Positions 38,301-41,300 of a stretch of 64,000 bases of DNA are shown here, one piece after another. Made by a program: the position numbers and the translations under genes. Position 1 is the first letter of the stretch. Each line of letters opens with the position of its first letter. Source of the DNA: Chrysomallon squamiferum (taxonomy: Eukaryota > Animalia > Mollusca); NCBI GenBank assembly GCA_012295275.1, contig CM022679.1, positions 27,714,001 through 27,778,000 on the forward strand, given 5' to 3'. The notes under the pieces are model-generated. The model worked only from the letters and a program-made list of their open reading frames with translations. It was not told where the DNA came from and searched no databases.

Positions 38301-41300
38301 TGGAAAAGATAGAAATCTATTGCTGAACACGTTAACAATTTTTCAGAGTTTCCTCTTCATTTCTCACCTTTTATAACACCCTCCATCACCATCTGTTCCC
38401 CACAGTTCCACTCTCCTTTGCACCTCTTGCCGTCTTGTTTACAGGAAGCCCGTTTCTGCTAGATGTGGTGGGAGACCCTTCGGGTCGGATTCGCCAGACG
38501 GTAGTCAAGGAGATGAAGACATGCGAGGCACAGCCAATTAACGAGTTGTGTCAGGTTATTCTACAGCTGCCTGGTAAGATGTTACTATAGAAACCATTTA
38601 GTAGTTGTGTCGCTTCATCTAATATCACTGTTTATTACAGGAAGTCCCTTTCTGATAGACGTGGAAGGGGAACCTTCTGGACGAGTTAGGGAAACAATTA
38701 CACGCGAAATGAAAACCGCAAGTGCAGTCCAACCCAACACTATGTGCAAATTTCTTTTATGCATTCCCGGTGAGTGACGTCGTCATATTCTGCATCCAAG
38801 AACCTATATCCAGTAACCGGCACTATTTATCTCAGTATGCACGTGCTGGTCACTCTTCTTGCACGTGCTGGTGTCTGGAATGCACGCACCAGCAATACTT
38901 CTGCATCCAAACTCTCTCGAAACAGTATTTGGAATGGTTACCAAGGTTCAGCCATATAATAATTTTGTTCTTCTCACAGTGATATACCGTACTGCCTGCT
39001 CCCGACATCGGTGGAATTACCATTGTTTACATTTTATATATAATTTATTTATTTCTTTATTCGTTTAACTCATACAGCTTATATTGTCTTTATTAACAAT
39101 ATGTGGATTTTATAATTAAAAAATTCTGCAAGCATTTCAAGTTCATCTTGAACAAAACTGAACGTATAACTACCATACAATTTATTATTTAATTATAAAC
39201 TTTATTTGCAATAAGCTTAGCATGATCGTACTAAAGCATGATCAAGTTAACAAGAAACTAACTACTGAAATACACACTTAACATCTTAGTTTATATAACT
39301 AATCATTTCCTAATCAAATTTCTTCTATCTAATCAGTATTAAAAAAAAAAGTGTATACATCGTTTTTGAATAATGAGATGATATGACTAATATTCTTATT
39401 ACTAAAGATAAAGTCGTAACGATTGGCTAGAATTGTTTATAAGTACTGAAAGAATAAATTTGACTGGTTTTTACTCAACGCTAATTTTATCATTGTTATT
39501 GTTTTTTTAAATTGCTACGAACCCTTTTATAAGTGTATAAAAGTATATCTATTGCATATTTTAATTCAGTAACAATATACTTTAGATATTTACCTTTAGA
39601 AAAATATATTTTATTTACAGTTTATTTTAATGAATTTTTCTTATGTTAACAATTAAGAATTAAACCATAGGTCCCAGATTTTTTTCTCTTATCTATTTTA
39701 TTTCATTTTATTTTAACTTTTATTTTTTATTGTTTATTCTTCTACGTTTTATATTATTATTGTTCTTTTTTATTTTCACTATTTATCTTCTTGTTTTTTT
39801 TACCTTTCGCAAAAAGTTGCAAAATGTCCTTTTATTATTTTAAATTTTATTTTATTTTATTTCTTATGAATGATATTTGTTTTCTTTCAAAGAAATGTTA
39901 GTTTTGTGTTAGATTATTATTATTAATATTAGTATTAATATTTGTTAACTATAGAAAATTAATTATTATAATTTAATTAACATGTCTAGTAACAATTTTA
40001 ATTCGATTATTATTATTATTATTATTATTATTATTATTATTATCATCATCATCATCATCATCATCATCATCATCATTATTATTATCATTATTATTGTGTT
40101 TGTTATTATTGTCTTTGTTGTCATTTGTATAATGGTTGATGTTGCAGTTATAGTTACGGTATGCTATCGTGTACTTCCTTTGTGCGTGTCTAAAAGGACA
40201 ATGTCAGATATACTGGTATACATTAATGTCGTCTCTAACTAAACAGGTACAAATCCTTTCGACATGGAGGCCTCAGTGGCTGACCCAGACGGCACAGTGG
40301 AGCTGTGTGAGGTTCTCGACGAGGATGACTTCCACTACCTGATTCAGTTCACACCCAAAGTGAACGGTGTCCACACCCTCAGTGTCAAGCATAAATCCAT
40401 GCACATATCAGGTACGTGAATCAATACAGGTGAGTGGATGGATGGATGGACGAATGGATGAATAAAGAAATGGATGGGATTAAAAACATTTTAAAAAAGT
40501 GAATGAATTAACACATCAGTGAGTTTAAGTTAATTAGCGTTTTTGAGTAAGGAGTGAATGAGTGAATGAATGAATGAATGAATGATGAAAGGACGAAATA
40601 ATCGATGAGTGCATAAACTACTGATAGGAGATATAACATGTTTTACACGTGAAGCTTTGTGCAGTAGTAAATCTTCTCTGCGTGTTGTGCAGGCAGCCCA
40701 TTCCAGTACACCGTGGGGCAGCTCAGCTCGGGCGGCTATCACAAAGTACAAGTCGGCGGACCGGGGCTGGAGCGAGGGGAAGTTGGCAAAAAAAGTGAGC
40801 AAAATAACCTTATTAATAGTATTATTATTAGTATTAGTATTAGTATTATTAGTATTAGTATTAGTATTACTATTATTATTATTACTATTATTATTATTAT
40901 TAGTAGTATTAGTAGTATTATTATTAGTATTATTATTAGTATTATTAGTATTAGTATTAGTATTATTATTATTATTATTAGTAGTAGTAGTAGTAGTAGT
41001 ATTAGTAGTATTATTAGTAGTATTATTATTAGTATTATTATTATTAGTATTTATATATTATTATTACTATTATTATTATTATTATTATTAGTAGTAGTAG
41101 TAGTAGTATTAGTAGTATTATTATTAGTATTATTATTATTATATTAGTATTGTTATTAGTATTATTATTATTATTATTATTATTATTATTAGTAGTAGTA
41201 GTAGTAGTATTAGTATTATTATTATTATTATTATTATTATTATTATTATTATTATTATTATTATTAGTATTAGTATTAGTATTAGTATTACTATTATTAT

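Follow-up and report, generated by a model that had tools for sequence, protein, structure and literature searches.

The role of the Ig20-21 latch of filamin in sensing force has been studied in detail, and latches engineered to be tighter or looser have both been reported to damage fly tissues. The window, that is, the whole 64,000-nucleotide stretch of DNA analyzed here, contains a filamin gene in which the exon predicted to encode the latch strand is present in two adjacent copies, raising the question of whether the gene uses one copy or the other and whether that choice alters the latch. Beyond the papers cited with individual statements, we drew on PMC11871041, PMC11346442, PMC13020024, PMC5521747, PMC11221683 and PMC5011733, and on van der Flier 2002 as cited.

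Both copies lie on the forward strand, exon A at 38445..38573 and exon B at 38641..38769, separated by a 67-nt intron (38574..38640). Each is 129 nt long, in phase 1/1, with an open frame and intact splice ends (tttacag/G and CCTG/gtaaga for A, attacag/G and CCCG/gtgagt for B), as expected of a tandem duplicate, in which neighboring homologous exons have the same length and phase. Between A and B, 72/129 bases and 22/42 residues are identical, and their opening 49 nt, counting the acceptor, form a direct repeat of 80% identity. Exon A encodes the end of Ig19, strand A of Ig20 (about 38489-38515), a loop and strand B of Ig20, and exon B encodes the same segment. They are flanked by an upstream constitutive exon at 37151..37303 that covers most of Ig19 in FLNA numbering and whose donor is common to A and B, and by a downstream constitutive exon at 40247..40411 that carries the rest of Ig20. 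A first-pass annotation made from the sequence had described two paralogous 129-nt phase-1 exons 67 nt apart, and its coordinates, quoted peptides, frames and splice sites all proved correct. The pair is not a chance resemblance, since RNA contigs join B to both of its flanking exons and use the acceptor of A, and the two versions correspond to separate isoforms of a second species. When the host gene was scanned for further duplicated exons, A and B remained the sole whole-exon duplication.

The second species is Gigantopelta aegis, a deep-sea vent snail. Its filamin-A-like isoforms X1 and X2 have the same length, 875 aa, and differ at 21 positions, all within residues 365-401; the B type is found in X1 and the A type in X2 and X3. 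None of the three full-length models contains both exons or neither. NCBI pipeline gene models generally rest on transcript evidence. Together with the RNA contigs described below, these isoforms make it probable that A and B are used on an either-or basis, as mutually exclusive exons.

Five sequencing runs contain the stretch, four of RNA and one of unknown kind. The four RNA runs come from a single study and were compared as assembled contigs with positions 35400-40900; such contigs show presence only and may drop rare variants. The joint from the upstream exon to B was found in 4/4 RNA runs and the joint from B to the downstream exon (38769>40247) in 3/4, which makes exon B the predominant form in this RNA. 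The joint from the upstream exon to A was found in one of the four, with 24 letters on its short side and a contig depth of 7.09 compared to 21.3 for B, depth being a poor measure of inclusion. This contig (run X1, record 3) spans 38443-38668 and retains the 67-nt intron, in which the frame of A meets a stop at 38588-38590. No joint from A to the downstream exon (38573>40247), from A to B (38573>38641) or skipping both exons was present in the four assembled-contig runs. Of the junctions that the first-pass annotation had named, both upstream joints and the downstream joint of B were seen, and no downstream joint of A in the four runs. Co-inclusion of A with B, which it had said would count against its reading, was found neither in these runs nor in the three full-length G. 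aegis models. RNA run X2 also contains an unspliced piece. Separately, an AT-rich intronic piece at 39905-39941 draws, in each of the four RNA runs, unrelated contigs of very high depth, likely reflecting a repeat or cross-match rather than expression of that intron.

The host gene is a short filamin, orthologous to the filamin-A-like gene of G. aegis, and extends over 23392..45477 on the forward strand; in tblastn the first residue of X3 falls at 23392 and its last at 45474. Pfam detected nine Filamin stretches (PF00630) in the G. aegis proteins, demonstrating tandem filamin Ig repeats, and no calponin-homology (actin-binding) domain in X1 or X3, the N-terminal residue of X3 lying inside the window; a longer form that draws on exons upstream of the window is possible. 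With a 96-residue downstream exon of the same gene as query, 38 proteins were retrieved, nearly all of them mollusc filamin-A-like proteins of 630-875 aa or fragments thereof, with the best match in G. aegis at 93%; the 43-residue exon A or B as query gave no match among longer proteins. The short filamin of Ostrea edulis and a 2264-aa filamin of the same species are on separate contigs, and their versions of the latch exon differ, which suggests that the mollusc short form has its own gene. By this comparison it looks like a separate gene rather than an internal-promoter product. Short invertebrate filamins described previously, including C. elegans FLN-1C (836 aa, nine repeats; PMC3143143), Drosophila Cher90 and the crab filamin C from which the Ig pair 7VZO derives, resemble the snail gene in their size of ~830-875 aa, in consisting of C-terminal repeats only and in retaining the mechanosensor region. 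FLN-1C and Cher90, however, are reported to arise from internal promoters of a long gene, whereas the oyster short and long filamins are on different contigs.

Several other features of the gene and its relatives were recorded. Babylonia (P0021/P0023), Nucella (P0028/P0029), Arion (P0016/P0022) and Bradybaena (P0014/P0287) each apparently have two whole short-filamin genes that carry different latch-exon versions, a duplication at the level of the gene and not of the exon. Within the host gene, tandem repeats at 34254-35317 copy both ends of a filamin exon at ~34546-34717: a 41-nt unit (7.5 copies) holds its acceptor, and an 86-nt unit (~8 copies) holds its 3' end and donor, so that several identical donors may be usable. 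A GC-rich segment at 24150-24310, within the first coding intron, is perhaps a repeat or regulatory element; Rfam gave zero matches to it or elsewhere across the window.

The position of the exon pair in filamin was established by aligning the A isoform of G. aegis with human FLNA Ig19-21 (2J3S), which phmmer matched with an E value of 7.5e-80, with an insertion of two residues ahead of the strand and an ungapped match beyond it. The FLNA register rests on this whole-protein alignment, with numbering anchored on Ile2144 and Ser2152 (PMC1948075). Exon B alone, searched against PDB, gave the same register through weak matches only (E 0.11 and 0.15), and exon A alone gave no PDB match up to E 10. 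In this register the exon spans FLNA 2128-2167 plus split glycine codons and equals the 41 residues of exon 40 that are absent from the var-1 forms of FLNA and FLNB (PMC1948075). The assignment of the duplicated exons to the FLNA exon-40 segment containing Ig20 strand A was therefore upheld, down to the same ends as the human exon. In both systems the Ig20 latch is subject to alternative splicing, but human var-1 deletes the latch whereas the snail gene swaps in a paralogous copy, the skipped form being seen in 0/4 runs. A further difference is that the snail host protein has neither an actin-binding domain nor an RRxS site. In other molluscs, some isoforms of the oyster long filamin (P0122, P0298-P0310) carry an optional insert of ~18-21 residues after the homologous exon, and a model from Elysia marginata (P0027) has the whole 43-residue exon absent in frame, like var-1; this absence may be a prediction error, and the models of related species keep the exon.

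In FLNA, columns 2144 and 2146 face Ig21: residue 2144 fills an Ig21 pocket, residue 2146 contacts Ig21 unfavorably, and the I2144E change opens the latch (PMC1948075). The hydrophobic anchor at the Ile2144 column is present in both copies and both species, as Val in A and Ile in B. To compare the isoforms structurally, G. aegis X1 and X2 were modeled by AlphaFold from a common alignment of 38 sequences. Both models had a mean pLDDT of 80.0 and showed a strand over residues 375-383, with the 2152 column in the loop that comes next. Both superposed on the fusion of an integrin beta-2 peptide with Ig21 (5xr1) from residue 373 (106/106 residues at 1.4 A) as well as on the Ig20-21 pair from crab (7vzo; 191/191 residues, 1.6 A, Z 27.5-27.6), and neither reproduced how the three domains are arranged in 2J3S (rmsd ~13 A by Foldseek). 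These superpositions indicate that both isoforms are predicted to be latched, with strand A of Ig20 in the CD groove of Ig21, a prediction in which the program may know the solved fold. Modeling placed the strand in the groove for each isoform and did not tell A from B: the models were indistinguishable, with the same secondary structure in the exon segment.

The annotation had further proposed that the two exons form a switch at S2152, with a Ser in B that can be phosphorylated and a Glu in A that permanently mimics the phosphorylated state, such that splicing presets the phosphorylation state of the latch. Part of its premise is sound. The whole-protein alignment does place the Ser of B (38721-38723) and the Glu of A (38525-38527) at the S2152 column, the Glu is retained in both A copies, and, according to simulations cited in two reviews, phosphorylation reduces the force needed to open the latch. 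The segment was also rightly identified, but S2152 itself lies just after strand A (PMC1948075) and falls in a loop in our models. The switch itself fails on comparison: G. aegis B has Gln at this column, so that Ser or Thr is not conserved in the B form across the two species. Among 48 distinct single-exon mollusc versions, the five commonest residues were Glu (33), Asp (4), Pro (4), Ser (3) and Gln (3), giving Glu or Asp in 37/48, from which it follows that the Glu of A is the usual state and not a new mimic. In 26 distant filamin representatives that passed our filter (149 searched), Ser was found at this column in two, with the caveat that gapped rows may be shifted. The PKA site of FLNA at S2152 is described in the literature as RRAPS, but neither R-x-x-S/T nor [RK][RK]-x-S/T occurred in any of the four A and B exons, and changes that mimic or block phosphorylation at S2152 are reported to leave integrin binding unaffected (Lad 2007, PMC1948075, citing Travis 2004). 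The phospho-switch is consequently very improbable, and what could be said for a weaker version of it is that A carries a charged Glu where B has a neutral Ser or Gln.

The residues that do distinguish A from B lie elsewhere. Five columns separate A from B consistently across the two species: Val in A versus Ile in B at 2144, Val versus Thr at 2145, Lys versus Arg at 2146, Gln versus Cys at 2165 and Leu versus Ile at 2166. The strand changes are conservative and inside the range of single-exon molluscs, in which 2144 is Val in 29 and Ile in 19 of 48 versions and 2146 is Lys in 37 and Arg in 8. In A, Phe2162, present in 48/48 versions elsewhere, is replaced by Val or Leu, Ile2166, also 48/48 elsewhere, is replaced by Leu, and the loop proline is moved by one place. 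The Cys of B at the 2165 column (38760-38762) was found in 0/48 versions elsewhere.

The age of the duplication was addressed by comparing the copies between species. Window A and G. aegis A are identical at 28/42 residues and the two B copies at 32/42, compared to 21-22/42 for the cross pairs, and the A-A and B-B pairs received tree support of 99/96 and 99/98. This orthology indicates that the duplication predates the split of the window species and G. aegis, as judged from these sequences. In the best tree (52 rows, 42 columns), A falls among gastropod and B among bivalve sequences, and a single clade of all four, which that tree does not show, is not rejected either (p-AU 0.33). All four exons have Lys at the 2149 column, a residue absent from the tally of the 48 other versions, which hints at a recent origin of the duplication. 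Among 25 named gene sets with at least two listed isoforms, G. aegis alone had two exon versions among the isoforms listed and the other 24 had one; an older pair missed by annotation in other molluscs is possible. A metagenome scan with both exons yielded 382 pattern matches, of which none was confirmed. A scan with the full alignment kept 80 loci, and 29 of these matched the exon profile with one copy each and none like the A/B pair, several scores being near the 12-bit cut, such that a diverged second copy could be missed. Sixteen of the 29 single-copy loci were checked, and eight had introns and both flanking exons; the same AG/GT-bounded exon thus recurs singly in genomic contigs of other animals. 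On present evidence, the exon pair is restricted to one lineage, with two related species so far.

The two copies have diverged at different rates. The flanking exons of the window species and G. aegis are identical at 94/104 residues (44/50 upstream and 50/54 downstream), a difference of ~10%. In 42 other species pairs whose flanks are 85-95% alike, the exon is identical at 27-41/42 residues; exon A (28/42) falls below 41 of these 42 pairs and exon B (32/42) is in the low range. Decay of one copy in relatives had been named as evidence against the pair: both copies are kept in G. aegis, but exon A diverges fast, a pattern compatible with either relaxed constraint or a new function.

How might joint inclusion of A and B be prevented? 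Exclusion by frameshift and decay was ruled out, because A and B joined stay in frame and open over 191 residues across the four exons; decay cannot enforce exclusion, and a block at the level of splicing is left. Both donors are ordinary GT sites. The sole YTRAY match in the 67-nt intron, a motif call, has its A at nt 49 (38622), 1 nt inside the 50-nt cut-off on donor-to-branch distance used as the steric criterion in a survey of human mutually exclusive exons (PMC5740500), the main text of which names no filamin gene. A branch point ~49 nt from the A donor would sterically prevent the joining of A to B, and the retained intron in the upstream-to-A contig fits such a block. As alternatives to steric exclusion, we looked for competing RNA pairing and found no 10-nt match with at least four G/C between introns or exons. 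A 10-nt AT-rich inverted repeat over the B branch region was rejected, ranking fifth of 127 windows by duplex energy.

Sequences around the pair also suggest how a choice could be made. A C-rich stretch 5' of exon A (38345..38444) contains six CAC motifs in 100 nt, a count reached in 4/178 intron windows of the gene, and a cluster 3' of exon B (38770..38919) contains five GCAC in 150 nt, reached in 0/112 intron windows, and six CAC, reached in 6/112; these motifs were picked after seeing the sequence, in a genome rich in CA repeats, and the B-side cluster is partly a local 13-nt repeat. The intron windows were drawn with approximate exon ends except for the seven around the pair. Invertebrate relatives of RBPMS prefer GCAC. 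The two clusters are candidate repressor and activator sites, respectively, for an RBPMS-like factor, since RBPMS is reported to repress from upstream CAC clusters and to activate from downstream ones (PMC6613909), and in this arrangement such a factor would favor B. The exclusive pairs of Tpm1 and Actn1 regulated by RBPMS likewise have CAC before the less-used and after the more-used exon (PMC6613909), and tandem duplicated exclusive exons share with the snail pair equal length and phase and, for the snail by motif, a branch-like site <50 nt from the donor (PMC5740500); compared to those systems, the snail branch point and regulator are read from motifs only.

Taking these observations together, the reading we favor is that the exon equivalent to FLNA exon 40 was duplicated in tandem and that one copy or the other would be used to make two proteins of equal length. 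Both isoforms would close the Ig20 latch over the ligand groove of Ig21, likely with a modest difference in latch strength arising from Val-Val-Lys versus Ile-Thr-Arg at FLNA 2144-2146, and not from the S2152 column, with further contributions proposed from the loss of Phe2162 and Ile2166 and the shifted Pro in A and from the Cys gained at 2165 in B. The duplication itself, splicing of B on both sides, use of the A acceptor and either-or isoforms in the G. aegis gene models were observed. That mild strand and core changes give the exclusive exons a real effect on the Ig20-Ig21 latch is a sequence-based proposal to which we assign a probability of roughly 0.5. Shifts of latch strength in either direction are reported to have phenotypes in flies. 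Against latch tuning stand the conservative strand changes, the similarity of the models, the fast divergence of exon A and the fact that the sole spliced contig containing A retains an intron and meets a stop; the protein also has no actin-binding domain.

Much of the same evidence would be explained if the exons were exclusive but functionally near-equivalent, with A a minor form drifting under relaxed constraint. The strand changes that stay inside the mollusc range, the indistinguishable models, the minor A joint in RNA and the identity of 28/42 for A beside 90% in the flanks all agree with such drift. A copy free to drift, however, sits poorly with the preservation of length and frame in both copies across a pair of species that have diverged by 10% in the flanking exons, with intact splice sites for both copies in the window, with five columns that differ alike between A and B in both species, and with the two A models against one B model in G. 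aegis, and we consider near-equivalence possible but distinctly less probable than an effect on the latch. Less probable again is that exon A is mainly unproductive here, such that the intron stays, the stop is met five codons in, and the output is lowered or the protein is cut within Ig20. The single upstream-to-A contig running through the intron to the in-frame stop, together with the missing A>40247 joint in the four contig runs, is what an unproductive exon would leave; yet a half-spliced precursor would look identical, contigs drop rare variants and run X2 holds an unspliced piece, while G. aegis has full-length A models, and conservation at the protein level would not be expected of a poison exon. 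An extension of the tuning proposal is that an RBPMS-like factor picks, by tissue, between latch modules of different opening force, with the conserved Cys of B adding a redox-sensitive element; we regard this as speculative and rather unlikely, somewhat behind near-equivalence. If true, the pair would parallel in nature the filamin mutants that were engineered to be open or closed, and would do so at the exon that vertebrates delete in var-1.

The scope of the finding is narrow, comprising two related species, conservative changes and a well-known splicing mechanism, and the phospho-switch falls away. The exon pair is already implicit in the public annotation of G. aegis. In the titles and abstract openings searched, with most subscription journals and supplements outside that search, no duplicated or mutually exclusive filamin latch exon was described, and the sole paper mentioning both filamin and Gigantopelta refers to filamin, in the portion of its text available, only as a matrix or cytoskeletal protein. 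The ends of the latch exon are conserved from molluscs to humans and the exon is a recurrent target of alternative splicing, as human var-1 omits it, the oyster long filamin can carry an insert after it, and here it is duplicated. With two natural latch exons in a single gene, two proteins can be compared that are identical everywhere else.
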